DNA of 64,000 nt from a virus: IMG/VR virus record IMGVR_UViG_3300032093_011758, positions 8,362-72,361 of that record, one strand, 5' to 3'. Of the stretch, positions 34,509 to 63,513 are shown in pieces (position 1 is the stretch's first letter; each line of letters starts with the position of its first letter). Under the pieces are notes generated by a model. The model was not told the origin of the DNA. It searched no databases and was given only the letters and a program-made list of their open reading frames with translations. The translations under genes were made by a program, and so were the position numbers.

Positions 34509-34510
34509 GA

Positions 34511-36169: not shown

Positions 36170-36177
36170 AAATTAAA

Positions 36178-37411: not shown

Positions 37412-37417
37412 ATTTTT

Positions 37418-37960: not shown

Positions 37961-37965
37961 ATTAT

Positions 37966-39464: not shown

Positions 39465-39466
39465 AA

Positions 39467-41218: not shown

Positions 41219-41221
41219 AAA

Positions 41222-41875
41222 TTAATATATAATTTTGAATTTATTTAACCCTACTGAATTCAAATACGGACTATAATTTCTCACATATTGGTGGTAATAG
41301 AAGGTGGGGTTATCCATTTTATAACTGTTTACTAAACATTTTATACTTGATTCCATTAAATGGACTTCTTCGGCATTTTCTATTAATGTTATCAAATTAA
41401 ATATATTATATTTTTTAGGATTTTCAATTATTTTTATATCTTTTCTTACTTTATTTAGATCTACATTATGTGTAAAGATATACTTTTCTTTTTGTGGGTT
41501 AAGATCTTCAACAATTTTTTTTTCTAACTCATAATCTCTTTCTAAATAAAATTCATCGTATCTCATAGAGAAAGGGAGAGATTTACCAACATAAAAAGAT
41601 TCATCAAATGTTTGACCCCCGGTCATGAATTCAAAACCTACTCGTATTACATCTTTTTGAATGTTTTTTTCTTTTATAAATTTTTCTACATCTTTATCCT
41701 CACCAATATTCAATATTTTTATATTATCATTATCTCGATACATGTATTCCACATTTTCAAAGTTGTGTGGTTTGCAGAAAATTGAAATATTATCATATAC
41801 TTTTTGAAAGTGTCTTGAAAGTCCATTGCATATTATGTGATCACCTAGACCTAAATGATGATAGATGTATTTCAT
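41222..41875 (-). CDS. putative glycosyltransferase (GT-B/GT9-like N-terminus)
   Basis: HHLGLGDHIICNG, IENAEEVHLMESS. Confidence 0.55.
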   Translation of the reverse strand: MKYIYHHLGLGDHIICNGLSRHFQKVYDNISIFCKPHNFENVEYMYRDNDNIKILNIGEDKDVEKFIKEKNIQKDVIRVGFEFMTGGQTFDESFYVGKSLPFSMRYDEFYLERDYELEKKIVEDLNPQKEKYIFTHNVDLNKVRKDIKIIENPKKYNIFNLITLIENAEEVHLMESSIKCLVNSYKMDNPTFYYHQYVRNYSPYLNSVGLNKFKIIY

Positions 41876-42561
41876 TTTGAAAAATTTTTGTAAACTGACT
41901 CCATTTCATATGATTTTATATAATGAAATGTAAGTGGTTTATCAATTAACTTAGAATAAAATGAAGGTGATTGAGAATACATACCATCACCATGAGTCAA
42001 TTTCAGATTTAAAAATTTTTTTACCATATAGCTTATCGCAATATCACCACATGCGTAGCATGATTCCACAAGTTTTCCATTGATATACATATCTAACCAC
42101 TCTTTATTGAATTGATCTATGAAAGGATATATTTTTTTCATTGCTGAATTACTCAAAAAAAACCCTGCACCCCCAGCAAAAACCTCAAAATCTAAACCAT
42201 CTAATTTTTCAAATCTGTTATATGTTTCACAAAATATGGTGTCAATACTAGAATCTTGTTCTCGTAAAAAAGAACTGATACTATCTTTAAAAAGCACGTG
42301 GTCACAACCTACAACACAATACCAATCATCTTCAGGATTTTTTTCATACATGAATTTTAATGCATATTGTTGTTTAGGAAAAAAACTATTATAATCTTCA
42401 TTCGCATCAGGAACCCGTATCAGATTAGTATTTTCAACATTATTACCACCAAAATAATATATGTGGTCAAAATCTTTTCCCCATGAATTTTGGCATGAGG
42501 TATATCTATCTTTTAAATTTATTGATGTTACAACACCAATTGATACTATACTTTTTGTCAT
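41872..42561 (-). CDS. Fringe/GT31-like beta-1,3-glycosyltransferase
   Basis: SWGK, DWY...GCD (DxD variant), FAGGAGFFLS, DIAIS, PLTFHY. Confidence 0.7.
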   Translation of the reverse strand: MTKSIVSIGVVTSINLKDRYTSCQNSWGKDFDHIYYFGGNNVENTNLIRVPDANEDYNSFFPKQQYALKFMYEKNPEDDWYCVVGCDHVLFKDSISSFLREQDSSIDTIFCETYNRFEKLDGLDFEVFAGGAGFFLSNSAMKKIYPFIDQFNKEWLDMYINGKLVESCYACGDIAISYMVKKFLNLKLTHGDGMYSQSPSFYSKLIDKPLTFHYIKSYEMESVYKNFSK

Positions 42562-43301
42562 AAATAGTTTTTAAAGTAATTTTTTATTATTTTATTTTTA
42601 TAATCAGATTCTGCTGTGAAAGAAAAACATCTATTATGTTTTTCTAAAATAGGTTTTAGTACAGGATAAAGACATACTGCCTGATGTCTTACCATACCCA
42701 CCCAAAATTCGGCAAAAAATCTATCAGGTGAAGTTGTTTTTAACAAATATTCAGATATACTTGGTAACGAAGATAAGAATTCAGATTTTGACCACCAAAA
42801 ATTTCCTGAAAAGTGGGCTGTGGATCCAGGTACTGATCCGGAAGGTATATAGTTACATCCAACAATATCGTAGTTTTTTAATTCTTCAATACAAATATTA
42901 TAGTGATCTATACAAAAATGTTCCATGATGTTTCTCCAATTTTCTACATTTTTGTACGAATAATTACCGTAATCTTGATCTAAGATTCTTGTTGCACCTT
43001 TCGTGTGAAAATACAAGTAATATTGATCATTATTTTTAATCGCGTGTTTTTGTAGTAAATCTAATGTAGATAACTCATATAAATTACTTGGAGAAAATGT
43101 AATATTTCTTGTAATAGATTCAAATAGGTTCAAAATTGTTTCAGAAGGTTTTATAGAATTTTCTTCTAGCGCAAAATTTATATAAAAATCAATATTTTCT
43201 ATTTTTTCTTCTAAGAATTTGATCTTAGAAAATTGATCAATTATTATTGATTCTGAATTTTTTTTCCAAAAAACATGATAAAAAACATTAATTTTATTCA
43301 T
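42558..43301 (-). CDS. putative glycosyltransferase-like protein
   Basis: YELSTL, YLYFHTKG, WR..M, HFSGNFWWSKS, AEFWVG. Confidence 0.55.
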   Translation of the reverse strand: MNKINVFYHVFWKKNSESIIIDQFSKIKFLEEKIENIDFYINFALEENSIKPSETILNLFESITRNITFSPSNLYELSTLDLLQKHAIKNNDQYYLYFHTKGATRILDQDYGNYSYKNVENWRNIMEHFCIDHYNICIEELKNYDIVGCNYIPSGSVPGSTAHFSGNFWWSKSEFLSSLPSISEYLLKTTSPDRFFAEFWVGMVRHQAVCLYPVLKPILEKHNRCFSFTAESDYKNKIIKNYFKNYL

Positions 43302-43963
43302 TATATACTAACCCTTAAATAATCATATCCGATTGGTTTATCATTTTCGTCTAATCTATCACCAACGAATCTCCCAATTTCTCTTGATATTGGGAATGGT
43401 TTTTTTTCAAAAAACTCGTCATGGGTGCATCTATCATTTTCAAAGATAGAATAAATAGTTTTAAGAAATGCTTGGTCATTTCCATAAATGTTTTGTTTGG
43501 TAAGTTGGGATTTATAGATCATATCTTTAAGAGGAACTACTCCCGATTTTATTCCCCACATACCGCCTAAAATACCTAATGAATCATTTCCATAAGGGAT
43601 TCTATGTGCCGGATGGTCTCTCATTACATGTAAAGATTTACCGGAACTAATCCATTCATCAACCGCCAACTTTTCCCTCAAAGTTATTCTTGAATCTGCA
43701 TCTCTGAAAATTGCATATTCTGAATATGGTAAACTTTCAGCCAAGAAACGCCAAAACATTCCGTACAAATTTTCATTCGTAACATCAATGACTTCTACAT
43801 TTAATTCTTTTAAACTTTGTATTGTAAGATCCGGAACGGAGTTGTCATAATAAACAACCATTTGCCAATCAGGATAAATTTGTTTCCAAAGTTCGGCGTT
43901 TCTAATTGCACCAATATTATATACTGGTTTATCACCCCATAAACTAAAACTTAGATACTTCAT
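43301..43963 (-). CDS. putative GT-A glycosyltransferase
   Basis: SFSLWG...Y, MFWRFL, RDADSR (DxD), MRDHP.H, GGMWG, DQ.FL. Confidence 0.65.
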   Translation of the reverse strand: MKYLSFSLWGDKPVYNIGAIRNAELWKQIYPDWQMVVYYDNSVPDLTIQSLKELNVEVIDVTNENLYGMFWRFLAESLPYSEYAIFRDADSRITLREKLAVDEWISSGKSLHVMRDHPAHRIPYGNDSLGILGGMWGIKSGVVPLKDMIYKSQLTKQNIYGNDQAFLKTIYSIFENDRCTHDEFFEKKPFPISREIGRFVGDRLDENDKPIGYDYLRVSI

Positions 43964-45384
43964 AGATTTTCAACTAATTTTTTCATTCCAGTTTCAAAAT
44001 CCATTTTATGAGGTTGGGTTTCGTGTGAATTCATTTGAAGGTGTTGTATTAATCCTCTTGTTAATGCAACTTTTTTACTCTTAAGAAGATAGAAAAAAGA
44101 TATCGCCCTTTCAAAAGAATGTCCACAATACGTGTCTTCTTTTATAAAATCTATAAGTGGGTCAAACCAACTCATAAACTCATCAAAAATCTCACTCTTC
44201 ATTGTGATATTACTTGTGCTTGACCACAACAAATTAGGGTTATTTCTAATTGTTGCTGTCAAAGTTTTTTCAAAATCAATTTTATATACTGATTTTATAC
44301 CTTCAAATAATTTATCAACTAACTTTCTTTCTCTTATGTATTGGCTATGATTTGCGGGGAATGGTATATATCCAACCATCTCCCAATTTTCATAAAAGAA
44401 TTTACTCTGAGATTGAGGGACGTTTTCGGCTAAAATGATATCATATTCAAATAAGTTTACGTATCTCTTAGTTATTAATTTATTCTTCCACAAAAGATAC
44501 CATCCTGTAAATGCGGTAAATAATGGGTACTTTTCTAAATTATTTTCAAAGTTTCTTGCTACAATTACATTTGGCAAAGATTCAACTTTATCTATGTCTC
44601 TATTACCCAAAAATACGTATTTGTAGTTTTTGAAATTTTTGAATTTTCCTTTTTCCTCAAAGTCCAAAACTATCCTTTGATCATGGACAAAAATAAATGT
44701 CTCACAATCATCTTCAATTTTTGTTATATCCATTGGTAAATTATTTTTATATTTTTCTGCGAATTCAATTCTATTTGATTCCCATTGTTGATTTGTTTGA
44801 CCAATAGATAAATGAGTGACTCTGTTATTGAAAGTAACTCCTACTTTTACACCATCTATAAAATTAGGTAAACAAAATCCTAAATCGTAAAAGTGAAATC
44901 CATCAATAGATTCATCAAACTTATGTTTTATTTTTGTTTTATCAAATGCGATGAATAACCCATCAACTATGACAGTTTCTTCAATTTTATCATTTAGATT
45001 TTGAGAGTAAGTTGATGTCCATTTTTTTCCTTCATGTTTGTGATTAACAATACCATACATTGTTTGTGGTACTTTCCACCATTGTCCGGATTTGTCTAAA
45101 AATTTAGTTCCTGCTAAACCAAGAATACCATACTCAGGATTTTTTTCAAAACTCCTCAACAATTTATCCCCCCAGTTTTTTGTGTCAAATTCTAAATCAT
45201 CATGACACAATACAATAATATCATGATTTGATTCTTCAATTATTTCATTGTAAACCTGAGATAACGATTTTTCTCCATTGTTTATCTTTTCAATAATTTG
45301 AACTTCTTTATACATACATGTCTTTTGTAAGTAATCCTTGTATGTCGGGTTTGAATTTCTTGTACTATATCCTATCGTTATCAT
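43960..45384 (-). CDS. two-domain glycosyltransferase (GT2-like N-domain plus second GT-A-like domain)
   Basis: SL..VYN, VLCHDD, VDGLFIA, FDE...GFHFYD; second domain LFEYD and H.FER. Confidence 0.8.
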   Translation of the reverse strand: MITIGYSTRNSNPTYKDYLQKTCMYKEVQIIEKINNGEKSLSQVYNEIIEESNHDIIVLCHDDLEFDTKNWGDKLLRSFEKNPEYGILGLAGTKFLDKSGQWWKVPQTMYGIVNHKHEGKKWTSTYSQNLNDKIEETVIVDGLFIAFDKTKIKHKFDESIDGFHFYDLGFCLPNFIDGVKVGVTFNNRVTHLSIGQTNQQWESNRIEFAEKYKNNLPMDITKIEDDCETFIFVHDQRIVLDFEEKGKFKNFKNYKYVFLGNRDIDKVESLPNVIVARNFENNLEKYPLFTAFTGWYLLWKNKLITKRYVNLFEYDIILAENVPQSQSKFFYENWEMVGYIPFPANHSQYIRERKLVDKLFEGIKSVYKIDFEKTLTATIRNNPNLLWSSTSNITMKSEIFDEFMSWFDPLIDFIKEDTYCGHSFERAISFFYLLKSKKVALTRGLIQHLQMNSHETQPHKMDFETGMKKLVENL

Positions 45385-45396
45385 AATTTAACATTT

Positions 45397-45966
45397 TTAA
45401 ATCCCTGTTGATCCGAATCCATTTTCATCTCTATCTTTTTTATCAACCGATTCAACTCTCGTTAGTGTTACCCAATCACCATTAATTACGGGGCTTAATA
45501 CGGCTTGAGCAATTTTCATACCCTTATGAATTTTAATTTTTTCTTTTGAGGTGTTGAATAAAATTACTTTGATTTCCCCATTATATCCTGAATCTACAGT
45601 ACCTGGAGTGTTTAATACAGTTAACCCTAAGTTCAAGGCTAAACCACTTTTTGGTCTTATTTGAATTTCTGTACCATCAGGAATATTAAATTTCAACCCT
45701 GTAGGAACTAACAATCTTCCAAAAGGTTCTATTTCTCCATCAATTATTGAATATAAATCAAAGCCCGAGTCTGAAGGGTAGTTATATCCCGGTTCTACAG
45801 CATCTTCATTTGTCACCTCATACTTTACATCTCTTGTGGGATGATAATTATCAAATTGTTCTTCTAAATATTTTAAATCCAAACCGATATTTTTCATAAT
45901 ATCGTTAATTTTATCTTCTGAAAAATCATCATCTTCAAAAAATTTTGAAATGTCTTCGTTGATCAT
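45397..45966 (-). CDS. dut: trimeric dUTPase with N-terminal extension
   Basis: DSGFDL, QIRPKSGLA, NTPGTVDSGYNGEI, KIAQAV, R...GFGSTG. Confidence 0.95.
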   Translation of the reverse strand: MINEDISKFFEDDDFSEDKINDIMKNIGLDLKYLEEQFDNYHPTRDVKYEVTNEDAVEPGYNYPSDSGFDLYSIIDGEIEPFGRLLVPTGLKFNIPDGTEIQIRPKSGLALNLGLTVLNTPGTVDSGYNGEIKVILFNTSKEKIKIHKGMKIAQAVLSPVINGDWVTLTRVESVDKKDRDENGFGSTGI

Positions 45967-45967
45967 G

Positions 45968-46669
45968 TTACTCTAAATTTTTTAATTTTTTTATTATGTG
46001 TATTAATACTTCAACATCTTTTTCGCAGTATTCTGTAATTTCTTTTAATTTGTTTTCTTCCCAATATGCGTGATGTACTTTATCTCCGGTTACCTCACCA
46101 TCTTTTGGTGTTGGTATATCCATAGTTGTACATAAAAGATCTAATGAACCTATTGAGGTGTAAGCTCCGTATTGCCAAATTTCTTTTGTGTCTATCGCTT
46201 TGATCTCCCAAGGTTTTGTATCATATGATGGAAGAATAGAAGGAGGCATAAGTCCATTTATAATCATACGTTTCGCCAGCATCGGTATGTCAAAGTTCTT
46301 TAAATTATGCCCGCAAAGATAAAAATCTAACTTACCACATCTATCTAAAAGTTTCTGACAATCTTTTAGAAGTTGCTTTTCATCATCACCTGAAAATGTT
46401 TGTTTTTTTATTTCATCTTTATCTGTGACAAATGCAACACTTACACATACAATTTTTGCAAATTCAGGAACAAGAGCCGCTCTTTTTAAGAAAACCTGAT
46501 CTAATGATAACGTATCATCTTCAGGAAATCTTTTCCTGAACCAATCAATGTACTTAATATACTGATCTGCAACCTTTGGGTTAGATGTTCTACAATCTTC
46601 ATACGACTTACATCCACCGACAGTTTCAATATCAAGAAACAAAATTTTTGTTAAAGGAATCTTAATCAT
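45968..46669 (-). CDS. PolB-type 3'-5' exonuclease-like protein (DEDDy)
   Basis: FLDIET, GHNLKNFDIP, YCEKDV. Confidence 0.88.
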   Translation of the reverse strand: MIKIPLTKILFLDIETVGGCKSYEDCRTSNPKVADQYIKYIDWFRKRFPEDDTLSLDQVFLKRAALVPEFAKIVCVSVAFVTDKDEIKKQTFSGDDEKQLLKDCQKLLDRCGKLDFYLCGHNLKNFDIPMLAKRMIINGLMPPSILPSYDTKPWEIKAIDTKEIWQYGAYTSIGSLDLLCTTMDIPTPKDGEVTGDKVHHAYWEENKLKEITEYCEKDVEVLIHIIKKLKNLE

Positions 46670-46674
46670 TTATT

Positions 46675-47889
46675 TTATTTTACAAGTGAACGATACCATT
46701 CCGCTCTATCTTTGGTTACTTTGTTAAGATCGTATGTGTCTTTAACTGTTTCATATAATCTTTCTCCCATATCAGTAATTAAGTTTGGATTCTTAACTAA
46801 TTTCTCAATATACTTAGCCCAATCAGAGTGATTTCTGTTTTCATCAACTAATAAAGCGTTTCCATCCACAAAATTACCATTTTTTAAGCAATGTGTCAAA
46901 TCTATTGTGTAAGGACCCACATTAGACGCTATGAGGGCCTTTTTATAAAATCCCGCTTCAATAACCTTCAGTTGAGATTTCATTCGGTTGAATATGTGAT
47001 TTTTGATCGGAGCTAAAGATATGTCAAATTTTGAATAATTTTTAGCGTAAGAAGTGACAGGTCTTGTCCAAACCCTTGAATAGTTTAAATTTTCAACACC
47101 CGGATATTCTTCCTCTTTGAATTTTTTCAGGAATTTTATGTAGTCTTCAGGTAATCCATAATAATTATCTGTTACGATTTGTTCATATGTGGCCCAAACT
47201 GTTTCTTCAGGTTTGATTGGTCTTTGTTTTTGTTCTCCGGTTTTTTGATTTATCTCTGTAATTGTACCCCGAGTATCAAAACCACATAAAACCATTTGTA
47301 GTTTGTCTCTCATAGAACTTATTTTTGACATTGAAGGAATCATAAGTTCCAAATCGTGCAGATGAGAAGAACCTCCTAACCAGCCGATTCTGATTCTTTC
47401 ATTTTCTGGTGTTGGTTCTTTAAACTGAGGTTCGTCCGGATTGATTGCATTAGGAAAAATAAAAACATTTTTATTGAACTTAGAAATCTCATCTGCAAAC
47501 AAAGATGTTGTAGTCGTTACAAACTCTGAGTTTTTAAGATTATTGACGATCTTTTCATTTATTTTATTGATTCTAATGATGTCGTGAATTGGATGTTCTT
47601 TGGTTGGAAGCCAATAATCATCAATATCCACGATAGCCTTAATACCTTGGTTTTTTAACCAATTGAGAATTTGAGGGGTGTTTTCATAAATATGTCCGAT
47701 ATTTCTGTGAATATGTACAATTTGGTAATTTTTCCAATAATTAGGATCATTCAATTTAGGTTCATAATCAATATCAACATGAAATTCATCGGGATACATG
47801 TTTTGTAGGAAAATGTGAGGATCAACAGATCTGAACTTCCCAACACCTGTTTTATCGGATGGGAGAACTAAAACATTAATTTTTGTCAT
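46675..47889 (-). CDS. GT-B glycosyltransferase
   Basis: G.GKFRS..P, DIDDYW, IGWLGGSSH..DL, DISLAP...FN..KSQLK.IEAG...IAS. Confidence 0.85.
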   Translation of the reverse strand: MTKINVLVLPSDKTGVGKFRSVDPHIFLQNMYPDEFHVDIDYEPKLNDPNYWKNYQIVHIHRNIGHIYENTPQILNWLKNQGIKAIVDIDDYWLPTKEHPIHDIIRINKINEKIVNNLKNSEFVTTTTSLFADEISKFNKNVFIFPNAINPDEPQFKEPTPENERIRIGWLGGSSHLHDLELMIPSMSKISSMRDKLQMVLCGFDTRGTITEINQKTGEQKQRPIKPEETVWATYEQIVTDNYYGLPEDYIKFLKKFKEEEYPGVENLNYSRVWTRPVTSYAKNYSKFDISLAPIKNHIFNRMKSQLKVIEAGFYKKALIASNVGPYTIDLTHCLKNGNFVDGNALLVDENRNHSDWAKYIEKLVKNPNLITDMGERLYETVKDTYDLNKVTKDRAEWYRSLVK

Positions 47890-51873: not shown

Positions 51874-54060
51874 ATGGCATATCAGAATATTAATCAATAT
51901 GTTTTTAAGAAATGGCGTATAATTGAAAGACCAATAATACAAGATTTCTCTCTTGCATCAGATGAAAAAGACTACAAAGAGGAGGTAATCTTCTCAAGAC
52001 AAATTATTGCCCATGATGATGGAAACAAATTACCAATAAGTTTTGATTTGGATGATTCCAATTCAAGTGAATTGTTTGTTCTAAATTACAAAAACTATAA
52101 CCCTTTCAATAATATTATATCTACTAATTTTTATAACCCTAAGAACGAAGATTTGACTTGTTTTAGTTCACAAACTTCTTGTGATATAGGTCTTACAGGT
52201 ATAGATAATGGGTTAGTATCTGAAATGACAGGACAAACAATAACATTTACAAAAGGTTTATTGCCTGATTCTGAAAAGTTTGACAGGTTATCATTTGATA
52301 GAAGATTAAAATTACATCAGGTTACTGGGTATACTTGGCAACCTAATTTGCAGTTTTCAGGGTTACCTGAGAATATGTTATTTGAAGTCGTATCAAAACA
52401 AAATAGTAAAGTTGGTGTGTATCACGAACTTTATGGTGGGTTTTATCAAGGATTTTATAAATTATTCGGATATGATTATGAAACATTTCCAAGTAGGGTA
52501 AACAAAGGGTGGTCAGTTGAGATGTTGATCAAACCAAGAATTGTGGATGAATTTGTTCCAAATCCTGATGAAACATCATTAAATGAAGTTTATCCAAATA
52601 ACAAAAATATTTTCTTTTATTTGGGAACTAGATCGGAGAATAAATTTTATCACCACGCTGATGGATCACCAAGTTCTTTGTCAGAATATAGTAGAGTTAC
52701 TTCAAGTCTGACATCTTTAGAAACTTGTGCTTGTTGTAACCCTGAAAATACAAACTCAAGATGCATATATGTTTATCCCCCAAGATCTATAAATAACGAA
52801 CACGATCCTCATAATAACTATGGATGTAATGTGTGTGGGGCGAGTTATGAATTCATGAAACCAACTTGTGAGTGTAATTGTGATCCGATACCCACATGTG
52901 GATGGGAGTGTAAACAACATGGTTGTGTAACAAAATATACAACAACCACAACAACTCAAAAATCTGATTGTGGAACACCTTGTGAAACATGTCAAAGCTG
53001 TGAATCGGTATCTTATGGTTCGGTTGAAAACACTTGTGAAACAGATCCATTGTATGATGGAATGTCAAATGCAATATCTTTCAAATTATGTGGAGACCCC
53101 AAAAATCCTGGTATCGGAGTTAGAATACTTCGTTTTACCGGGGGATGTGAAGTTTCCGGATCATGTCCCACAGGTGCAACATACACGACGGGATATACTG
53201 TAGATGACTACTGCACGACTAAAAAGATTTATGACTATTGTATCGCAGAAGGAAACCCTGAGTTCTTGGAACAGGAACATTGGATCCAAGTAAACTTTGT
53301 TTGGGAAAGATATTCCAACTTAGAAGATTGTGATTTGGTAAATAAAGGGGGATTAGGATTAATTACTGAAATTGAATATTTGGATTCATTAGCAAATAAT
53401 TCGGTGTCTCTTATAAAACCACCTGTAACTCAAGGGTGTAGTTCGGCGGATGAAATAGAACTTGTGAATCTTAATCAAAATTGGTTAGATGAGAAGAAAT
53501 ATAGAATGGGTAGATTAAAAATTTATGTTAATGGTAGAGTGTTTGAAGTATTAGAAAATATAGAAGAAATAATCCCAAGAGCCCTTAATACTGATAAAGA
53601 AAAACAAGTTGGGGTTCCGTTTAATATTTCTTGGGGTGGAGGAACTCAAGGATTACATAACCATTTAACGTTCACAGGAATACCCGAATCAACATCAGGT
53701 TTGATCTATCAACAAGATCCGGAATTATTTCCAACAAACATTTTGAGTGGAACTACCTTCTCTGAACTTAAAACAAACATACTTTTAGAACAAAACTTTG
53801 GTGGAACATTTGAAGGAGGAATTTCTCAATTCAGAATGTACACCCAACCTTTGAGTGCTGATGAGGTAAAACACAACTTTTTATTATTAAAAAATAAATT
53901 TGACTTGTTCGACTATGATTGTCCGAATTGTTGTTTGGGTGATGATTTTGAATTTACACTACCAACACCAATTACTACGACAACCACTACTTACGTACCA
54001 ATTACAACCACAACGACATTCATTCCTGTAACAACTACAACAACTTATTTTGGTGGATGA
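51874..54060 (+). CDS. LamG/concanavalin-like beta-sandwich virion protein with Cys-rich insertion and Thr-rich tail
   Basis: [10 protein letters not shown]...W.QV.FVW...LKIYVNG...ISWGGG...[13 protein letters not shown]...EV..NF; about 29 Cys. Confidence 0.6.
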
Positions 54061-54061
54061 T

Positions 54062-55738
54062 ATGAATAATTTGATAACGATACAAAGTAAAATATATAGT
54101 GGAAAAACTCTCAATATTGTTTTTATCCCGGATAATCAACACATTAAAATTGATTTGGGTAATCACGTTATTCCTTATAATTTTAATTCTGCATTGTTGT
54201 CACCCCCTCGTGAAGTTTATGGTCAATATATCATAAATTCTTTGAGTGGAGATTGTTTATTTAATTTATTTGTTGTAAGACCAACACCTACTAACACACC
54301 ATCACCAACTAAAACACCTACAAATACTCAAACACCTTCCGTTACATCAACTAATACTTTAACACCGACTCCAACTCCAACGAATACAGAATGCTTCTTC
54401 CCGACATATACTCCAACTAGTACACCTACATCGACAAACACACCAACACCGACTAATACACCTACAAATACGGAGTGTTTCTTCCCAACATTACCTAATG
54501 TCACACCTACTAACACACCAAGTAATTCATCAACACCTTCTAATACACCAACTAACACAGGCACACCAACTCAAACTTCTACACCCACAATTACCCCAAC
54601 TCCAACAAATTTACCGATACAAACTCCGACTGTTACTCCAACCAACACACAAACTCCAACTAATACAGAAACATCTACTAATACCCCAACTCCTACAAAT
54701 ACACAAACACCAACTAATACAAATACTCAAACACCCACAACAACCAATACACAAACACCAACAAACACAGAAACACCTACACAAACTTCAACCCCAACTA
54801 ATACACAAACACCAACAAACACAGAAACCCCTACCAATACTCCGACTCCTTCAGTTACAATAGGATTAACCCCAACTGCAACAGAAACTCCCACCCCTAC
54901 AAATACACAAACACCAACTAATACAGAAACTCCCACCCCTACAAATACAAGCACTCAAACTCCAACTAACACAGAAACTTCAACCCCAACGAATACACCA
55001 ACTCAAACTCAAACACAAACTCCGACTAACACTCCAACTCCAACTAACACAGAAACCTCAACACCTACCAATACTCCAACTAACACAGAAACACCAACTC
55101 AAACTCCAACACAAACAACTCCATTGAGTTGTGACTTTACATACACGTTGATTGAAAATTGTGACGCCGAATATCAATTTTTAGGCGTCCCTCCGAGTTT
55201 ATTTGTTTGGGAATATTTGAATCCCGGAGATTACATAGACGGATCATTACAAACAAATAGAGGAACATCATCTGTTAAAATGACAACTTCAGGTGGTAGT
55301 TTGGTTCCTGATTGTGTCACGAGCGGAATAACATTTGCCGGTTTAGGAACTGAAGTTCCACAATTTCAAAACTACTTGGTTTGTGGAATACCAAACACTT
55401 TAACCACGGATGCTTATAGGGTTATATCACCAATAGAGATGACATTCACATTCACACCCGCAGTCACAAATCCATTACTCGCTTTTTGGTCTTTGGGTCA
55501 ATCGGGAATATGTCAAACTTTTAGTGCCGACACTAACTTCCAAAACTTCCCGTATTGTTATAATACAGCCGAGCAACCATTAACACTCAATTTGGTTAAT
55601 AGAACTATAACCGCATGTGAAGGATTTGGTGTAATTGAGTTCCAAGGAACATTCAGTCAAATTAAATTATCTGTATTGTCAACAGAATGTAGAACTAATT
55701 TCTTGTGGGCAAACATAATATGGGGATTTGAGGAATAA
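54062..55738 (+). CDS. mucin-like Thr/Pro-rich virion fibre/decoration protein
   Basis: Small N-domain, ~280-aa TPT(N/E/Q) stalk, C-terminal beta domain; no signal peptide. Confidence 0.7.
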
Positions 55739-55752
55739 ATGAACATAAATAA

Positions 55753-55759
55753 TATTTAT
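55753..55759 (+). promoter_or_regulatory. TATTTAT putative late promoter
   Basis: 12 nt before ATG 55772. Confidence 0.6.
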
Positions 55760-55771
55760 AATTAAATAAAA

Positions 55772-57076
55772 ATGATAATAGGGGTTTACATATCAAGTTC
55801 TAACTACAACGGACAAACTGCGTTCGTAACCTTTTCTCCAACTACAGGTGGAACTATAACCATAGGTAATAAGTTAATACCCTTTAATTATTATGACAAC
55901 TATCCCTACGGAACTTATAATTTATATTTTTCTTCCATAAACCAAACTTGTATCGTTGAGGTTATTCAACCGACACCGACACCAACACCAACCAATACCG
56001 TAACCCCTACTGAAAGTCCATTAATAACTGAAACCGCAACTCCAACCCCAACTGCAACACCTCCAATTATAACTTGTGAAGAACTTCTTGTTTCAGAAAA
56101 TAACCTTTATATAATGACTGAAGGTAGTGATATCATTTCTTTACAACAAGACCTATGTCCTAGCTCAACGCCAACAAACACCCCAACTGAAACTCCAACC
56201 CCAACTAACACTCCTACAAATACAGAAACACCAACCAATACTCCAAGTGAAACCCCTACCGAGACACCAACCCCAACTAATACCGAAACTCCAACTGAAA
56301 CCCCGACGCCTACCAATACCGAAACTCCAACTGAAACCCCAACCGAGACACCAACCCCAACTAATACCGAAACTCCAACTGAAACTCCAACACCGACTAA
56401 TACAGAGACACCAACTGAAACCCCTGTTGCAAGTCAAACAAACACACCAACAAATACTGAAACCCCGACTGAAACTCCAACAGAGACACCAACTCCGACT
56501 AACACCCCAACTGTAACTTCAACTCCGATTTGTGATCAATTATTAACGAATGAAAATGATGACAATATACTATATGAAAATGGTGATTTCTTATCATTAG
56601 AACAGGACTTCTGCCCGAGTCAAACCCCTACTAATACACCAACAAACACACCAACTCCAACTAATACCCCTACTGAAACAGAAACAAGCACACCTACACC
56701 TACTGAAACAGAAACAAGCACACCTACACCTACTGAAACAGAAACAAGCACACCTACACCTACTGAAACACCAACTCAAACTCCAAGTGAAACACCTACC
56801 GAAACTCCAACCCCAACTAACACAGAGACACCAACTGAAACTCCGACCCCAACTAACACAGAGACACCAACTGAAACTCCAACTAACACTCCAACTCCAA
56901 CCCAAACAGAATCTAATTTACCATTAGAGACACCAACACCAACCGCAACAAGTTCTGAAACACCTACTGAAACACCAACACCAACTCCAACTCCAACTGA
57001 CGCGAATGAAAATATGACAGCCGAAAATGGAGATACAATAACCGCTCAAAATGACGATCCAATTATTTTTGATTAA
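55772..57076 (+). CDS. mucin-like Thr/Pro-rich protein with three xxEN-type short repeats
   Basis: N-domain paralogous to ORF 54062; TPTET stalks; LLVSENNLYI, LLTNENDDNI, MTAENGDTI motifs. Confidence 0.7.
   Translation: MIIGVYISSSNYNGQTAFVTFSPTTGGTITIGNKLIPFNYYDNYPYGTYNLYFSSINQTCIVEVIQPTPTPTPTNTVTPTESPLITETATPTPTATPPIITCEELLVSENNLYIMTEGSDIISLQQDLCPSSTPTNTPTETPTPTNTPTNTETPTNTPSETPTETPTPTNTETPTETPTPTNTETPTETPTETPTPTNTETPTETPTPTNTETPTETPVASQTNTPTNTETPTETPTETPTPTNTPTVTSTPICDQLLTNENDDNILYENGDFLSLEQDFCPSQTPTNTPTNTPTPTNTPTETETSTPTPTETETSTPTPTETETSTPTPTETPTQTPSETPTETPTPTNTETPTETPTPTNTETPTETPTNTPTPTQTESNLPLETPTPTATSSETPTETPTPTPTPTDANENMTAENGDTITAQNDDPIIFD
56669..56770 (+). repeat. perfect 30-bp tandem repeat (3.4 copies) encoding PTETETSTPT
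   Basis: CCTACTGAAACAGAAACAAGCACACCTACA. Confidence 0.9.
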
Positions 57077-57100
57077 ATGTAAAAAATCATAAACTCAATA

Positions 57101-57107
57101 TATTTAT
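57101..57107 (+). promoter_or_regulatory. TATTTAT putative late promoter
   Basis: 14 nt before ATG 57122. Confidence 0.6.
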
Positions 57108-57121
57108 AAAATAAAAAAACT

Positions 57122-57748
57122 ATGGCAAACGTAAAAATATCTCAACTACCTACTTACACAGGTAATACACAAAACACTTGGATGGTAATAAACGATTCAG
57201 GTGAAACCACGAGTTATAAAGTTCAAAAACAATATTTCTTTGCGGCCGCAGGATTTTCTTGGGTAGACACCGGATCGGGAAGTAACTACCCTGCGAGTGA
57301 TAGATATGGTAATCTAACAAACGCTTCAGATAACTATATGCCTTTTAATACGACAATTTTTAACAATAATACAGATGTATTTGAATTAGTTAATTCAGGA
57401 TCTGTATCTGGAACTTTAGGTGATACGGGAGCTAGGGTTTATATTAAAGTTCCTGGAATATATCAAATATCTTGTCAAGTGCATTTGTTTGACCTTTTCG
57501 GTAATATTGATGTTTTAGTCAAATTATCATCATCATCAACCTCGGCAGGAACAATGTCTTTGGTTACTTTACTTCACGATTATAAGTCAGTTGAAACATC
57601 TGCAGATCAATTAATGAATGGAACACTTTTGATAAATGTAACCGATCCTACTTATTATGGACTTGCGGTAACTCCAAGTGCAAATACTCCATTCCCTTCG
57701 GCAACCAATTCAACCCCAACAAGGTGGTTCTTCCAAAAAATATCTTAA
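57122..57748 (+). CDS. fibre tip-like protein (MANVKISQLP N-terminus; C1q/BclA-CTD-like C-domain)
   Basis: MPFNT...N...F...VYIKVPGIYQISCQV resembles TNF/C1q-like trimeric tip domains. Confidence 0.55.
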   Translation: MANVKISQLPTYTGNTQNTWMVINDSGETTSYKVQKQYFFAAAGFSWVDTGSGSNYPASDRYGNLTNASDNYMPFNTTIFNNNTDVFELVNSGSVSGTLGDTGARVYIKVPGIYQISCQVHLFDLFGNIDVLVKLSSSSTSAGTMSLVTLLHDYKSVETSADQLMNGTLLINVTDPTYYGLAVTPSANTPFPSATNSTPTRWFFQKIS

Positions 57749-57753
57749 TAAAG

Positions 57754-57778
57754 AAACCCTCGAATAAATCGGGGGTTT
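57754..57778 (+). terminator. intrinsic terminator
   Basis: AAACCCTCGA-ATAAA-TCGGGGGTTT. Confidence 0.7.
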
Positions 57779-57818
57779 ATGTTTTTAATTAATCACTTGA
57801 ATTTAATTCTATTACAAC

Positions 57819-57829
57819 TATTTATTTAT
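57819..57829 (+). promoter_or_regulatory. overlapping tandem TATTTAT putative late promoter
   Basis: TATTTATTTAT, 11 nt before the in-frame ATC at 57841. Confidence 0.55.
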
Positions 57830-57840
57830 AAAAATAAGTT

Positions 57841-60174
57841 ATCTCCGCCTTTTTACAAATATCAAGCATAGTTGGAACCCCCCCATTTCAGGTTTACGTT
57901 TGTGATGTCACTGGTTCATATTGTGAATTAGTTGATACAATTACGGGGTCCGTTCCTCCATCGGTTTTGATTCAATTACCGAGCTTCTTTGACCTTGCTC
58001 CCGCAGTATTGGTAAAAATAGTCGATGCAAATAACTGTGAAAATTATGAGATAAGACCTTGTCAAACAACTCAAACCCCAACTCCCACCCCTACGGTTAC
58101 ACCAACTAACACTCAAACACCGACAAAAACTCCTACTCAAACACCAACAGTTACGCCAACAAACACTCAAACTCAAACGCCAACTAACACTGAAACCTCA
58201 ACTAACACACCAACACAAACAAATACTTCCACCCAAACACCTACAAGTACTGAAACACCTACTAATACACCAACACAAACAAATACTTCCACCGAAACAC
58301 CTACAAGTACTGAAACACCTACTAACACACCAACTAGCACTACAACTCCAACAAGTACGGAAACACCAACACCAACTAATACTGAAACTTCAACTGAAAC
58401 ACCTACCGAAACTCCAACCCCAACTAACACAGAGACACCTACACCTACAAACACGGAAACAACAACACCAACGAATACGGAGACACCTTCAAACACCCCA
58501 ACTCAAACACCAACCTCAACACCTCCTCCGGCAATATGCTTTACAATATCTGATGAGTTCTCAAGTTGGTCTTGCACAATTTCACCATCCGGATATCATA
58601 ATACAAAAGTTTACTACGCGGTATATGGATCTGATTGCACAACTGTCATAGGTTATGTCTATTGGTCTATAACTAACGATAGATGGGAAACTTCTAATGT
58701 CTTGGATGGAACGGTATATGGATACTTGGATAATGCGGGTGATGATTATCCAATTAATGGTCAATTCTTCTTCTGGGTTCCTGTGAGTGGTGATTATGAA
58801 ATAAATGCATCTATTGAAGGAATTTGTCCTACACAAACTCCAACACCAACAAATACGACAACTAATACTTCAACACCAACAAATACGGCAACTAACACTC
58901 CAAGTAGTGTAACTCCAACACCGACACCTACAAATACTCAAACACCAACTGAAACTCCAACTCTAAATACCTGTCTGATCCAATCATGTTGTGAACCAAC
59001 AGACCTCAGAACGGCATATGTTAGTATCCCTGACGCAATTGTTGGTAGAACCGGTCTATTGGGCGGATTCTGTTTCCAAATCCTTCAAGTTGGTATTTCA
59101 GGAACTCCGAGCAATATTATGACACAATTCTATGATAATTGTTTAGATTGTGAAACCGTTAATCCTTGCCCAACTCCAACACCAACAAGAACTCCGACTA
59201 GAACACCAAGTCAGACACCAACTCAAGCAACACCAACTCCAACATCAAGTAATACTCCAACTTTAGCGACACCTACACCAACACCTTCACATACTCCAAC
59301 AAATCAAACACCAACCGTCACACCAACAAATAGTCCATCCTATTTGAATTGCGTTGCCGAATATTGTTGTGATGTTACAGATCAGGAAATCTTGAAGGTA
59401 AGAAGTGATCTTGCAATTATTGGAAATACAGTTGTATTCAATAACAAATGTTATAGAATTATTCAAAACAATCTTGTTATTGCGTTTGATATTATAAATT
59501 CCGCTTATAGTAGTTGCGCAACATGTTTAGTTGATTACGGATGTCCTACTTCAACTCCAACTCCAACTAACACAAGAACACCATCAAATACTCCTTCCAA
59601 TACACCAAGTGGTGTGACTCCGACTCCAACTCCAACTAACACACCAAGTAGTGTAACACCAACTCCAACACCAACAAACACCGCAAGTAATACACAAACA
59701 CCATCCAATACCGCAACGAACACACAAACTCCATCAAATACTCCGACAAATACTCAAACACCAACTAACACAAGAACAAATACCCCAACACCTTCCAATA
59801 CTCCATCTAATACTGCAACTCCGACAGAGACACCAACTAATACTCCAACCAACACACAAACACCAACTAATACTCCAACCAACACACAAACACCATCTAA
59901 CACTCCTACTAATACCCAAACCTCAAGCGAAACTCCAACAAATACACCAACTAATACTGAAACTCCAACCAATACTCCTACTAACACAACCACATCTACC
60001 GAAACTCCGACTTCTACTCAAACTCCAACAGAAACACCAACTAACACTCCAACCAACACAGAAACTCCGACTCAAACTCCAACACCTACACCAACAACAT
60101 TAGAGGAAGGTTTTTTACAACAGGAAAATCTATTCTATATCCTCCAAGAGGACCAGAATAATATCATAATATAA
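57841..60174 (+). CDS. mucin-like Thr/Pro-rich multi-domain protein with Cys-rich modules (probable start at non-canonical ATC 57841)
   Basis: Frame is open from 57838 ([22 protein letters not shown]...); several TP stalks; two CC...C...CxxC...C modules; C-terminal [15 protein letters not shown]. Confidence 0.7.
58201..58320 (+). repeat. 60-bp near-perfect tandem duplication in TP stalk
   Basis: 58201-58260 versus 58261-58320 differ at 2 positions. Confidence 0.85.
59831..59895 (+). repeat. 30-bp tandem repeat (2.2 copies) in TP stalk
   Basis: CACCAACTAATACTCCAACCAACACACAAA x2. Confidence 0.85.
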
Positions 60175-60188
60175 TTGAATAAATGAAA

Positions 60189-60195
60189 TATTTAT
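60189..60195 (+). promoter_or_regulatory. TATTTAT putative late promoter
   Basis: 3-6 nt before ATGATG 60199. Confidence 0.55.
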
Positions 60196-60198
60196 AAA

Positions 60199-63100
60199 AT
60201 GATGCCAAATTTACCAATATCACAGCTACCCTCAGTGGGTAATACGGGTTATACTGAATCTGATATACTTGTTTTTGTTAATTATCAAATTGAAACTGGA
60301 ACAACATCTAACACACCCTTATCACAAGTTAAGGAATGGGTTTTATCCGGATTAAGCGAAAACTACCTTCCTTTAAGTGGAGGGACCGTAAGTGGTGACA
60401 CCATATTTCAGAGTGGATTAACCGCTAATACAATATCGGCCACAACATATTTGAATTTACCTGATGTTGAACCGAGTAAAAAAATTGTTCTGAAAAAACT
60501 ATATCTAGGTAATAGAAATGTTAATAACAGTACGAACCCTTTTGTTAGCTCAATATTAAATCAATCGTTAAACAATCAAACAAAACGTATTTTTACATCA
60601 CCAAATCAATATACCGGAAGTTTTCTTGATTATTATTTTACCGTGAATGATGGTGTTGAGAGAAAAAAGATTTTGTTTTCTAGGGGTATTGCACCTAATA
60701 TCATTACAGGAACTACGATTGATGACATGGTTGATTATATTGTTGACACATATGTTGATGTTAATGTAAACTTTTACTGTGAATTATGGGTTTTTTTGGA
60801 TAAAAATTTTAACGAAATTAAACAACTTAAATTAGTAAATCCTCTTTTTAATTCTTTACATCCGAGGAAATTAAATTCAACCAGATCCTATCTCGGTGTA
60901 ACTGAATTTGTTAGGAAAACAGAATACCCTGACTTTTCTTGGTTAGACGATAATACAATTACAAGTAATTTTAACGCTCCTTCTGACATTTGGTATGATC
61001 CTCTAACTTCAGAGGATATACCTAAGAAGATTCATGATATTGTTAACACATCCGGTTTTTACGGAACATTGTCAGGTTTTGCTCAAACAGTAATAAATGT
61101 GGGTTCTTGGGATACCGATGTGAGAAATGTTGTTAATAATTCAGTATATGTAGAAACCTTACAAAATTTTTATACCAAATTCATAGTTCCAACTAATAGA
61201 TATAATTTTACAAACGTAAATTTACAAAAGTTGAATAACTTTTATGGTGATATTTTTTATGACAACGTAAGTGGATCTCCTTTGGTGTTTTCGGCCAACT
61301 CAAATACAGATGTTTATCCATCACCTTATTTTCTACAATTGATAGACACATACAAAATATATCCGTCGGGTCAATTTGGTTATATTTTTTATTCTTCGTC
61401 TGCTGAAGCAGATACACAACTCAACGACCTTAATTATAGTGTTGGTCATGACAATGAATTAAAATACATAAATAGAAACACAAGAGAATTCGGAAGTTAT
61501 ATCCAAGTTATACCAGGAATTAATGAAAACTATTCTCTCAACGTTAAAATTTCAGGTGATCCGGATCAAAATTTATGTAATTCTTTCATAGATGATCTAT
61601 TTGATAACAGATTGGTTCTTAATAACCCAAATGTCAAGTTGAACAGTTCTGCATGGCAAAATATAAAAAATTTTAACAAATCTGAATTTTATAATTCTGT
61701 GTTGACCGGTCAAACCGAGTTTAATTTCCTTCTTCAGTCCACAGATGTGAAAATGGAGCAATTGTCTGAAAATTATCAATTTACCGGAAGTTCTTTTGTT
61801 AGAAAAATTTACAACTCCGGAGAATTCTCATACTATGGAGATAGTAGTGGGACGTATCTCCAATTTGGAGTAAATTCACTTTCCGGAGAAGGATTATTTG
61901 ACCAAAATTTCAATAGTGGCGGTTTCGGGAGTGACAATTTAGGTCAATGTATTGACAAACAAAGTAATGGGAAAATAATTGTTGGTGGGGCTTTCTCCGA
62001 ATATGATGAAAGTACCTCAACATATTATATGAATAATATCATGAGATTGAATACTGATGGAACTTACGATACATCGTTCGTTAATGGAATTGGATATGGG
62101 TTTAATAATCCAGTATATGCGGTTGCTGTTCAATCAGACGATAAGATAATCGTTGGTGGTGTGTTTAGTACATATACTGATAATACAGGATCTTATTCCT
62201 GCAATAACATTGCAAGATTAAACTCTGACGGAACTTTTGATACAACATTTAATAGTGGTGGTAATGATTTTGATGACTATGTCAATACAATAGCAATTCA
62301 ATCGGATGGTAAAATAATATGTGGTGGCGCATTTAATATATACAACGATATTAATGGAAATTGGAACACAACATATTTGATAAGGTTAAATACAGATGGG
62401 ACTGCGGATTTGAGTTTTGTTGGAGATAACTATGGATTTAATAATATTGTTCGTGTGGTATCTATACAAAGTAATGGTAAAGTATTAGTTGGTGGTGATT
62501 TCTCACAGTATTCCAATAGTGCCGCAACAAACAACATGTCCCACATATGTAGATTAAATACTAACGGAGATTTTGACACATCTTTCGGAACAATTGGTTT
62601 TGGATTTGATGATTCTGTTGACGCATTTGCGATTCAATCTGATGGAAAAATATTAGTCGGAGGAGTTTTCAATTTATACACTTCGGGCCCTTATGAATGT
62701 GCAAAGATTGCAAGATTAAATTCAGATGGTAGTTTTGATACTTCATTTTTAGACGGAATCGGAGTATATGGTTTTGCCGGTGGTTGGGTTAGAGATATAA
62801 AAATACAAAATGATGGAAAAATTTTGGTTGTTGGTGGTTTTTATTCTTATGATGATGAAACCGGATCTTATTTTCCCAATAGAATCGCTAGGTTAAATAG
62901 CGATGGAACTTATGACACAACATTCAACCAAGGGGGGACAGGATTCACCGGTTGGGATGTTTATCAAATGTTATTGACAGAAGAAACAGTTATTGATAAA
63001 ATCTCTGTTGATGCGATTTATAAGGGACATTCTTTTAGACCATTCATATATCCACTAAATCTAACACAAATATTTTTTGATGTTCCATCGTCTTATTTAT

Positions 63101-63513
63101 ATGACGGAACAAATTTGATTCCTTCAGATAATTCTTCAAATAATATTTTTGAGTTTGTAGGATCAACCATTACAAATAAAAAACTTTGTTTGATTGTATA
63201 TTACAAAAAACTTGATTCTTATGATTTATTTGTTGAGGATATTGTTTTGGCAGAACCTCGCGGTGGTTTCGGTTATGTTGAAACCAATGTTATAACTTTG
63301 ATGATAAATAACTTAGAAAAAATATTCACAACTAATTTAGGTAATAACGTCAAGTCAAGACAAATCAAACCAAATAATTTAGAGGTTTACCTTGGAATAC
63401 TTGATGTAGATACAAACAAAGTTAATACGATACCAAACTATAAAATTGTAGTAGACAATTATGGTGGTAACCTGATATTTAGATTAGTAAAGGGTGGTCT
63501 TAATATGAATTGA
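60199..63513 (+). CDS. large fibre/receptor-binding-like protein with delta-60 (DUF5122-type) beta-propeller repeats
   Basis: N-terminal MPNLPISQLP and YLPLSGGTVSG; six (I/V)Q.DGKI.VGG.F...I.RLN.DG..D.SF repeats at about 61950-62960. Confidence 0.8.
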   Translation: MMPNLPISQLPSVGNTGYTESDILVFVNYQIETGTTSNTPLSQVKEWVLSGLSENYLPLSGGTVSGDTIFQSGLTANTISATTYLNLPDVEPSKKIVLKKLYLGNRNVNNSTNPFVSSILNQSLNNQTKRIFTSPNQYTGSFLDYYFTVNDGVERKKILFSRGIAPNIITGTTIDDMVDYIVDTYVDVNVNFYCELWVFLDKNFNEIKQLKLVNPLFNSLHPRKLNSTRSYLGVTEFVRKTEYPDFSWLDDNTITSNFNAPSDIWYDPLTSEDIPKKIHDIVNTSGFYGTLSGFAQTVINVGSWDTDVRNVVNNSVYVETLQNFYTKFIVPTNRYNFTNVNLQKLNNFYGDIFYDNVSGSPLVFSANSNTDVYPSPYFLQLIDTYKIYPSGQFGYIFYSSSAEADTQLNDLNYSVGHDNELKYINRNTREFGSYIQVIPGINENYSLNVKISGDPDQNLCNSFIDDLFDNRLVLNNPNVKLNSSAWQNIKNFNKSEFYNSVLTGQTEFNFLLQSTDVKMEQLSENYQFTGSSFVRKIYNSGEFSYYGDSSGTYLQFGVNSLSGEGLFDQNFNSGGFGSDNLGQCIDKQSNGKIIVGGAFSEYDESTSTYYMNNIMRLNTDGTYDTSFVNGIGYGFNNPVYAVAVQSDDKIIVGGVFSTYTDNTGSYSCNNIARLNSDGTFDTTFNSGGNDFDDYVNTIAIQSDGKIICGGAFNIYNDINGNWNTTYLIRLNTDGTADLSFVGDNYGFNNIVRVVSIQSNGKVLVGGDFSQYSNSAATNNMSHICRLNTNGDFDTSFGTIGFGFDDSVDAFAIQSDGKILVGGVFNLYTSGPYECAKIARLNSDGSFDTSFLDGIGVYGFAGGWVRDIKIQNDGKILVVGGFYSYDDETGSYFPNRIARLNSDGTYDTTFNQGGTGFTGWDVYQMLLTEETVIDKISVDAIYKGHSFRPFIYPLNLTQIFFDVPSSYLYDGTNLIPSDNSSNNIFEFVGSTITNKKLCLIVYYKKLDSYDLFVEDIVLAEPRGGFGYVETNVITLMINNLEKIFTTNLGNNVKSRQIKPNNLEVYLGILDVDTNKVNTIPNYKIVVDNYGGNLIFRLVKGGLNMN

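Follow-up and report, generated by a model that had tools for sequence, protein, structure and literature searches.

Paired tag and module motifs in adjacent phage fibre genes as a probable joint between stalks and heads

Introduction

How does a phage fasten an exchangeable receptor-binding head to the stalk that carries it? Such heads decide the bacteria to which a phage attaches, and the way in which they are fastened is known for few model phages. The question is raised by a stretch of viral DNA of 64,000 nucleotides (nt), called the window here, which spans positions 8,362 to 72,361 of the 72,361-bp IMG/VR virus record IMGVR_UViG_3300032093_011758 (CheckV completeness estimate, 24%). A first-pass annotation of the window pointed out an acidic motif (the EN tag) in two stalk-like proteins and a second motif (the ISQLP module) at the start of the protein encoded next to each of them, and it proposed that the two work as a plug-and-socket code. 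We followed up this proposal computationally. The two motifs occur in adjacent genes of many other viral contigs, and sequence comparison indicates that the pair is probably a widely common snap-together joint.

With a connector that is recognizable in sequence, stalk genes could be matched to their head genes during the annotation of thousands of uncultured phage genomes; by itself, the module marks 616 protein clusters (E ≤ 1e-3 among 1.84 billion representatives). If such a joint exists, it would account for the tethered, multi-headed fibres of giant phages built from low-complexity linkers and would supply research on protein assembly devices with a small natural pair of tag and module. 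Since cultured marine phages carry the pair, the idea is directly testable.

Two stalk genes in the window are each followed by a head gene

Among the products of the window (G+C content of about 30%), PHROG matches identified a large terminase, a portal, and a major head protein. Because of these matches and because its terminase has 26 to 28% identity to the terminases of two other phages, Flavobacterium phage immuto and an uncultured phage of 484 kb, we conclude that the window is a fragment of a large T4-like (jumbo) phage. A block of fibre-like genes with abundant Pro/Thr linkers occupies positions 51874 to 63513 of the plus strand and includes the two gene pairs in question, whose parts are as follows.

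55772 to 57076, plus strand: stalk protein 1 (434 amino acids [aa]; from the list of open reading frames), with a small N-terminal beta-sandwich anchor, Pro/Thr linkers, and three EN tags
55772 to 55975, plus strand: anchor domain of stalk protein 1, about 65 aa, a six-strand beta-sandwich in the AlphaFold2 (AF2) model
56075 to 56158, plus strand: EN tag 1 (CEELLVSENNLYIMTEGSDIISLQQDLC), internal, residues 102 to 129, bracketed by Cys102 and Cys129
56531 to 56614, plus strand: EN tag 2 (CDQLLTNENDDNILYENGDFLSLEQDFC), internal, residues 254 to 281, bracketed by Cys254 and Cys281
57014 to 57073, plus strand: EN tag 3 (MTAENGDTITAQNDDPIIFD), at the C terminus of stalk protein 1 and directly 5' of an ISQLP gene
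57122 to 57748, plus strand: head protein 1 (208 aa), starting with MANVKISQLP; ISQLP module plus C1q/TNF-like jelly roll
57841 to 60174, plus strand: stalk protein 2, with Pro/Thr linkers, small Cys-rich domains, and an EN tag at its end
60112 to 60171, plus strand: EN tag 4, at the C terminus of stalk protein 2
60202 to 63513, plus strand: head protein 2 (1,103 aa from the second ATG), starting with MPNLPISQLP; divergent ISQLP module plus delta-60/DUF5122 propeller

All the motif copies on which the proposal had been built were present as placed: three EN copies in the product of the frame at 55772 (the first was placed at 56084, which is the first Leu after C-E-E in EN tag 1), one at the end of the 57841 frame, MANVKISQLP at 57122, and MPNLPISQLP at 60202. 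Stop codons lie between the genes of each pair, so stalks and heads are separate proteins, as had been stated.

The EN tag is about 24 aa long and consists of three beta-strand-like units with a period of eight residues (hydrophobic-x-hydrophobic-x-x-E-x-(G/N)-D); judged from its sequence by eye, it would be made of three short strands with tight turns of the E-N-G-D type between them. It is placed either at the C terminus or in a Cys-bracketed loop inside a Pro/Thr linker. Four such acidic tags, all with this period, are spread over the two Pro/Thr-rich stalk proteins of the window (Pro and Thr make up 50% of stalk protein 1). Within the window, the motif is weakly informative: simple patterns also match acidic low-complexity proteins elsewhere in the record, and a profile of the tags of relatives gives two of the four copies, EN tags 2 and 3, just 9.3 and 9.8 bits. 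Its significance comes from comparison with other phages and not from the window alone.

The ISQLP module is about 35 to 38 aa long (M-A-N-x-K-I-S-Q-L-P-x-Y-T-G-...-V-M-N-N-S-G-E-T-x-T-F/Y-K) and, again by eye, would run as a strand, a loop, a second strand, an N-N-S-G turn, and a third strand. When we searched all six-frame open reading frames of at least 40 aa in the whole record, the pattern [ILV][ST][QE]LP occurred at two sites alone, the starts of the two heads. In head protein 1, the module covers approximately residues 1 to 38 (57122 to 57235) and scores 81 bits with the module profile; the divergent module of head protein 2 scores 36 bits, and its MPNLPISQLP subtype is also found in related loci L019, L022, and L045. 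Head gene 2 has two ATG codons, at 60199 and 60202, and MPNLPISQLP begins at the second (the product is 1,104 aa long when counted from the first).

The two proteins differ after the module, and the head types named in the first-pass annotation, C1q-like and delta-60 propeller, were confirmed. The AF2 model of head protein 1 (mean predicted local distance difference test [pLDDT] of 70.5; below 50 for residues 1 to 40 in the monomer) has the ten-strand jelly roll of the C1q/TNF type. Its best Foldseek match was the C1q head 2wnv_B (E = 2.6e-6; TM score of 0.76 on the target), and the top matches comprised C1q heads, CD40L, BclA, and TNF (E of 2.6e-6 and weaker). Head protein 2 matched the delta-60/DUF5122 family PF17164 in six stretches (212.3 bits versus a cut-off of 27; E = 6.4e-64) and TIGR02608 (198.5 bits versus a cut-off of 76.5); its best delta-60 repeat lies at residues 645 to 684 (62131 to 62250).

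EN tags adjoin ISQLP genes in other viral contigs

Adjacency of the two motifs across other genomes had been set beforehand as the test of the proposal, and the outcome was strongly in favour of it. A first set of 56 viral contigs was retrieved solely via the N-terminal module profile (N-terminal 40 residues); a locus search with the single 208-aa head protein 1 as the query gave no match, megablast of the region against named phages gave none either, and tblastn with the module of the window found Synechococcus phage S-B68 alone, weakly. Directly 5' of the module gene, an EN-like C terminus was present in 32 of 50 non-redundant junctions, with gaps of 2 to 37 nt and the consensus ..Y-K-L-Q-A-E-N-x-D-F-I-Q-T-E-N-G-D-N-I-x-I-E-x-stop. 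We also scored C termini with a measure defined by the four motifs of the window only, so that nothing was trained on the relatives. Scores of at least 30 were reached by 29 of the 51 frames that end beside an ISQLP start and by 8 of 700 other frames (Fisher P = 3e-31), and several of these eight control frames are real tags (e.g., in L020, L023, and L028).

Most exceptions in the first set have a tag nearby. It is internal, and usually Cys-bracketed, in an upstream giant protein (L016, L019, L025, L031, L036, and L042), or it lies one gene away (L023 and L026), and in one locus the gene order is reversed (L020). With a profile of 25 tags, 45 of the 56 loci had a tag of at least 15 bits, a count that is descriptive, as the profile was built from the same loci. 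A scan of an entire 286,785-bp relative (86% complete) returned one canonical module, and tags of at least 12 bits were confined to one protein, approximately 1.3 kb away.

An independent replicate consisted of 80 contigs, mostly from quite different phages, found by a search seeded on the generic module type MANxKISQLPAA... (MANIKISQLPAASA...); three of them are shared with the first set (L094 = L066, L096 = L068, and L165 = L065). A fixed pattern of two acidic turns eight residues apart matched 33 of 65 non-redundant upstream frames compared to 15 of 1957 control frames, and a strict pattern matched 28 and 5 of these, respectively. About six further upstream frames carry the terminal motif by eye, outside the pattern. 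Many upstream proteins of the replicate are only 60 to 130 aa long, and in these a small domain, Cys-rich or of another kind, precedes the ending ...FLTKEDTDLILQEDNNKIIV-stop or ...LLLETGDVLLMESGDYILLES-stop. Their terminal tags closely resemble EN tag 4 of the window, which is likewise close to the ends FLTKEDTDLILQEDNNKIIV and YLAQENESLILQEDNSNIIT found 5' of ISALP/ISQLP genes in unrelated contigs. In L127 and L131, Cys-knot-plus-tag proteins of 67 to 73 aa have fibre genes 3' of them.

The pair is also carried by cultured phages. In Roseobacter phage CRP-4, gp54 (three repeats; RISESGDSRVSELGD..., TEAGDTRITEEGD) is followed by the putative fibre gp53 (MANIKISQM...); Methylophilales phage MEP401 has gp59 and gp58 and then the tail fibre gp57, and Octadecabacter virus BD1 has gp20 and then gp21. 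Podoviruses are among the carriers of the motif pair.

Both motifs are portable and conserved as peptides

Each motif is independent of the rest of its protein. Tag-bearing proteins have only the linker and the tag in common, and their N termini belong to at least five unrelated multi-member anchor families, plus singletons. On the other side, the module begins at residue 1 in 149 of the 150 best cluster representatives (proteins of 40 to 910 aa), the lone exception being a repeat-protein false positive. We observed a second copy of the module in two proteins, in tandem in P0054 (approximately residues 42 to 82) and internally in P0052; a free N terminus is therefore not strictly required. By sequence, the parts that come after the module form 11 clusters of heads. 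Collagen triple-helix repeats come straight after the module in 4 of 10 heads tested and in P0046. Judging from their family, C1q/TNF-like heads would be homotrimers, and the collagen repeats in relatives imply trimers as well; together, the repeats and the C1q fold place the module at the N-terminal end of trimers.

Over 146 clusters, conservation reaches 89 to 100% at 13 positions of the module; the conserved positions include M1, K5, I6, S7, L9, P10, G14, N24, S26, G27, T29, T31, and K33. Selection acts on the peptides and not on a recombination linker or an RNA element, because the DNA of the junction is poorly conserved, the Ser codon of ISQLP alternates between AGY and TCN across relatives, and the spacers (5 to 38 nt) differ in length and sequence. 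For the tag, identity at the first, second, and third codon positions was 0.42, 0.57, and 0.42; the corresponding values of the module were 0.72, 0.78, and 0.61.

Internal Cys-bracketed copies of the tag also occur in relatives L002, L005, L016, and L042. All internal tags checked (those of these four loci and the two of the window) have a Cys on both sides, and terminal tags generally have no flanking Cys (those of L014 and L005 have one). This suggests that a Cys-flanked internal tag is a disulfide-closed loop displayed within the linker.

Pfam, PHROGs, and NCBIfam hold no model for either motif, and the sole matches were to a low-complexity linker (phrog_15511). When the PDB was searched by sequence, with the profiles of the two motifs as well as CRP-4 gp54 and gp53 as queries, the matches were at chance level only, and literature searches among open-access papers turned up no phage paper with the peptide strings of the motifs. 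For the EN tag/ISQLP pair, we found no curated family, solved structure, or open-access paper describing it.

A proposed joint between tethered stalks and trimeric heads

We lean towards the reading that the EN tag and the ISQLP module form a joint that hangs trimeric heads on tethered stalks. The stalk protein would be held in the virion via its N-terminal anchor domain and would present the EN tag at the end of a flexible Pro/Thr linker. The next gene would supply a trimeric head, which may be C1q-like, collagen-like, or propeller-bearing and whose N-terminal ISQLP module would dock on the tag; any anchor would thereby be able to carry any head. The module would probably fold only upon binding, which fits its disorder in the monomer model of head protein 1. 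Mutual binding is the simplest account, because the two motifs are conserved, portable, mutually exclusive, and adjacent. We infer the direct contact of tag and module, their stoichiometry, the attachment site of the anchor, and the use of internal tags as extra sockets, which would make stalk protein 1 a branched carrier. A complex prediction with three module copies and three tag copies (using alignments and run with no controls) gave scores of 0.02 and 0.06 versus a mark of 0.32, which counts neither for nor against this contact.

We put forward a wider version only tentatively, and in its full extent it is rather doubtful. It describes a portable connector across phage groups, in which an acidic 24-residue tag (free C terminus or disulfide-closed loop) would recruit trimeric fibres via a 35-residue module that folds on binding. 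One monomeric tether could then bear several heads (three sockets on the 434-aa stalk), and any anchor could combine with any head. The mismatch between monomer and trimer would be resolved if each of the three 8-residue units of a tag bound a different chain of the trimer, as they might. The bond might even be covalent; the module has conserved Lys residues (K5, 90%; K33, 99%) and the tag has Glu, Asp, and Asn, but their presence is no evidence of an isopeptide bond.

Several observations weigh against a joint of tag and module. Co-variation of tag and module (Spearman coefficient of 0.49) was similar to that of module and head (0.45) and is not distinguishable from common ancestry. About a third to a half of the ISQLP-type genes have no recognizable tag in the adjoining gene (18 of 50 in the first set; 32 of 65 by pattern in the replicate). 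In the cultured cyanomyovirus S-B68, the module protein (MK016664.1, 113955 to 115760 [L070]; ISALP type; profile E = 3.8e-11) comes directly after a tail fibre protein of 3105 aa that lacks an EN end. The window has four tags for two module genes, and its tags are divergent (9 to 10 bits). Finally, fusion of the two motifs in one chain, which the first-pass annotation had raised as a further test, was not found among the best 150 representatives, and tags were present in 0 of 152 module proteins. The plug-and-socket code is thus supported in part, by adjacency and by two motifs that behave as portable units between variable anchors and variable heads.

The end of the S-B68 tail fibre protein has W-x-D-x-x-x-G-x-x-Y-I-Y-Y repeats in place of an EN tag.

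The motifs may also lie side by side without touching each other. The module could bind a third, common virion component, and the EN repeat could be a self-contained folding or oligomerization element (e.g., a beta-hairpin cap at fibre ends), with the clustering of fibre genes bringing them together. The many ISQLP-type genes without a neighbouring tag (S-B68 included), the unequal numbers of tags and modules in the window, and the lack of excess co-variation all speak for this arrangement. Clustering does not, however, sit easily with at least five unrelated anchor families in which each tag comes directly before a module gene (gaps of 2 to 37 nt) or with adjacency that is kept when the gene order is reversed (L020). 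In addition, both motifs are unique in the 286-kb genome and lie approximately 1.3 kb apart there, and other fibre-module genes of the same loci have no tag (8 of 700 and 15 of 1957 controls). We consider an arrangement without contact unlikely.

Module proteins could, alternatively, be assembly chaperones or other transient partners of the stalk C terminus instead of permanent heads, as a fibre gene followed by a partner gene is also the order seen with tail fibre assembly proteins and as some module proteins are small (80 to 170 aa). We find this quite improbable given that their C-terminal parts are receptor-binding or structural folds (C1q/TNF, collagen, and delta-60 propeller) and that CRP-4 gp53 and MEP401 gp57 match tail fibre PHROGs. 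The motifs might even be a by-product of selection on DNA, if similarity at the junction served the exchange of head cassettes. Heads and anchors are indeed shuffled on either side of the junction, and the fibre genes of lambdoid and T-even phages offer precedents, in principle, for boundary sequences of this kind. This idea is largely refuted by the low DNA identity at the junction, the switches between Ser codon families, and the variable spacers described above; moreover, the motifs persist across phage groups of very different base composition, and internal tags distant from gene boundaries are conserved too. A recombination linker is thus highly improbable.

Comparison with known systems

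If the EN tag and the ISQLP module form a joint between stalk and head, part of its design has a precedent. In Klebsiella podophages KP32, K11, and KP34, a branching domain of the first receptor-binding protein (RBP1) is reported to receive a conserved N-terminal docking peptide of the second, RBP2 (PMC6872550, PMC13352976). On this reading, both systems hang the second fibre or spike, the product of a neighbouring gene, via a short conserved N-terminal element, and the heads are exchangeable; here, this element is the module at residue 1, with tag genes adjoining. The branching domain of the Klebsiella phages is described as folded and as part of a trimeric tailspike, whereas the candidate socket in our case is the tag, about 24 aa long, which follows a Pro/Thr linker or lies in a disulfide-bracketed loop within it, on proteins with many unrelated anchors. 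No folded branching domain (T4 gp10-like) was found in the stalk proteins: no domain family was detected in them, and only the tag is common. Neither motif showed a sequence relation to the Klebsiella system in Pfam, PHROGs, or NCBIfam. Searches for the concept among open-access papers found only the Klebsiella docking-peptide work and general cryo-electron microscopy papers. The candidate socket here is a linear tag; a second receptor-binding protein hung via an N-terminal peptide is already established in Klebsiella podophages.

The likeness to cohesin and dockerin that was drawn in the first-pass annotation holds as an analogy. In both cases, portable docking modules are placed on Pro/Thr-linked scaffolds, possibly with several sockets each. 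The sizes differ (a dockerin has about 70 aa and a cohesin about 150 aa), and the partner in our case is likely to be trimeric. When all six fibre-module proteins were scanned with Pfam, neither dockerin nor cohesin domains were detected (E ≤ 0.1), which indicates that the EN/ISQLP pair is not a homologue of this system.

The distal fibre joints of T-even phages are those of gp36 with gp37 and, in T2/S16-type phages, of gp38 adhesins with the gp37 tip; attachment of a second receptor-binding protein to a first through an N-terminal peptide is established for them too. The window shares with them the T4-like lineage and a distal binding part that comes from the next gene, with its N terminus towards the C terminus of the shaft. 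Unlike these joints, the pair has no sequence or family match to them, the stalk is a low-complexity tether instead of a rigid trimeric shaft, and podoviruses carry the pair as well. Module-bearing proteins are also laid out like C1q and collectins, in which an N-terminal assembly region, a collagen stalk, and a globular trimeric head follow one another: they have an N-terminal region, collagen repeats in some cases, and a head of the C1q/TNF type. They differ in that their N-terminal region is the ISQLP module, for which we propose a tag carried by a different protein as the partner. As judged from sequence, the EN/ISQLP pair is outside the Klebsiella receptor-binding protein, T-even, and cohesin/dockerin families.

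Gene boundaries

The first-pass annotation had noted a TATTTAT of its own for each gene. The window contains the following signals at the boundaries of the two gene pairs.

57101 to 57110, plus strand: TATTTATAAA, a putative promoter-like box 12 nt 5' of 57122
57754 to 57778, plus strand: terminator-like hairpin (10-bp stem and then a T run) after head gene 1
57823 to 57832, plus strand: TATTTATAAA, 5' of stalk gene 2
60189 to 60198, plus strand: TATTTATAAA, directly 5' of head gene 2

In total, there are five copies of TATTTATAAA in the window versus 1.73 expected (5 of 100 shuffles reach five), and three of the five lie just 5' of 57122, 57841, and 60199. Boxes of this type also occur in L015, L030, L035, and L038. 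The boxes are thus real in the window, but a separate promoter for each gene is not a general feature, as many related tag/module pairs have just 11 to 18 nt between the genes. Because the spacers in most relatives are too short for a promoter, separate transcription is no part of the tag/module system, and the boxes are a local feature. Fusion of stalk and head by frameshifting or read-through was ruled out by several in-frame stops in the window and by gaps in relatives that are not multiples of three.

In L005, L006, L008 (6726 to 7952), and L012 (4810 to 6033), a conserved gene for a protein of 407 to 409 aa (MED..LLDE..GVGYGYK..) lies between the tag gene and the ISQLP gene. Its sole match was below the threshold, to the N-terminal domain of NARROW LEAF 1 (17 bits versus a cut-off of 27).

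Stalk proteins and neighbouring genes

The frame of stalk protein 2 is open from 57841, and its first canonical start codon is the TTG at 57967, with no in-frame ATG, GTG, or TTG earlier. The stretch between these positions already encodes a domain-like N terminus. This indicates that translation begins at an unusual codon (ATC or ATA), that it has a leaderless start behind the TATTTATAAA box, or that the sequence contains an error.

For the anchor domain of stalk protein 1, the best AF2 model had a pLDDT of 91.8, and the remaining four had values of 47.8 to 58.7. A Foldseek search against the PDB gave no specific match (best E of 0.18, to generic FN3/Ig-like folds). Paralogues or homologues of the anchor are encoded at 54062 and in L008, L015, L016, L019, and L046, and the layout of the stalk 1 locus (this anchor type with an EN end and then an ISQLP gene) recurs in L015 and L046. 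The same small beta-sandwich anchor forms the N terminus of a 289-aa protein in L016 (8766 to 9632), whose C terminus we take, by eye, to be papain-type peptidase-like (..NSWG..WG..GY..). The anchor may therefore carry cargo other than fibres.

The first gene of the fibre block (51874 to 54060) encodes a 728-aa protein (MAYQNINQY...) that has no tag in the window. Its homologues in L009/L038, L016, L031, L036, L041, L045, and L048 carry an EN tag, at the end or within, and an ISQLP head comes after them. By eye, the ends of the protein resemble a concanavalin/LamG-type lectin domain that is split and has received a Cys-rich insert.

Many glycosyltransferase-like genes adjoin the fibre genes on the minus strand (33447 to 47889). 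The gene at 43960 to 45384 matches Glyco_tranf_2_5 (E = 4.5e-25); weak GT1 matches lie at 33447 to 34508 and 46675 to 47889, and a weak RXYLT1-like match lies at 38688 to 39464. In related loci, glycosyltransferase-like genes are also found directly 3' of the head gene. Glycosylation of the Pro/Thr linkers of the stalks is a possibility.

Outside the EN/ISQLP finding, a very acidic protein with tandem EDGEYDLEES repeats is encoded at 16764 to 18329, just 5' of the major head protein gene, and may be a scaffold or core protein.

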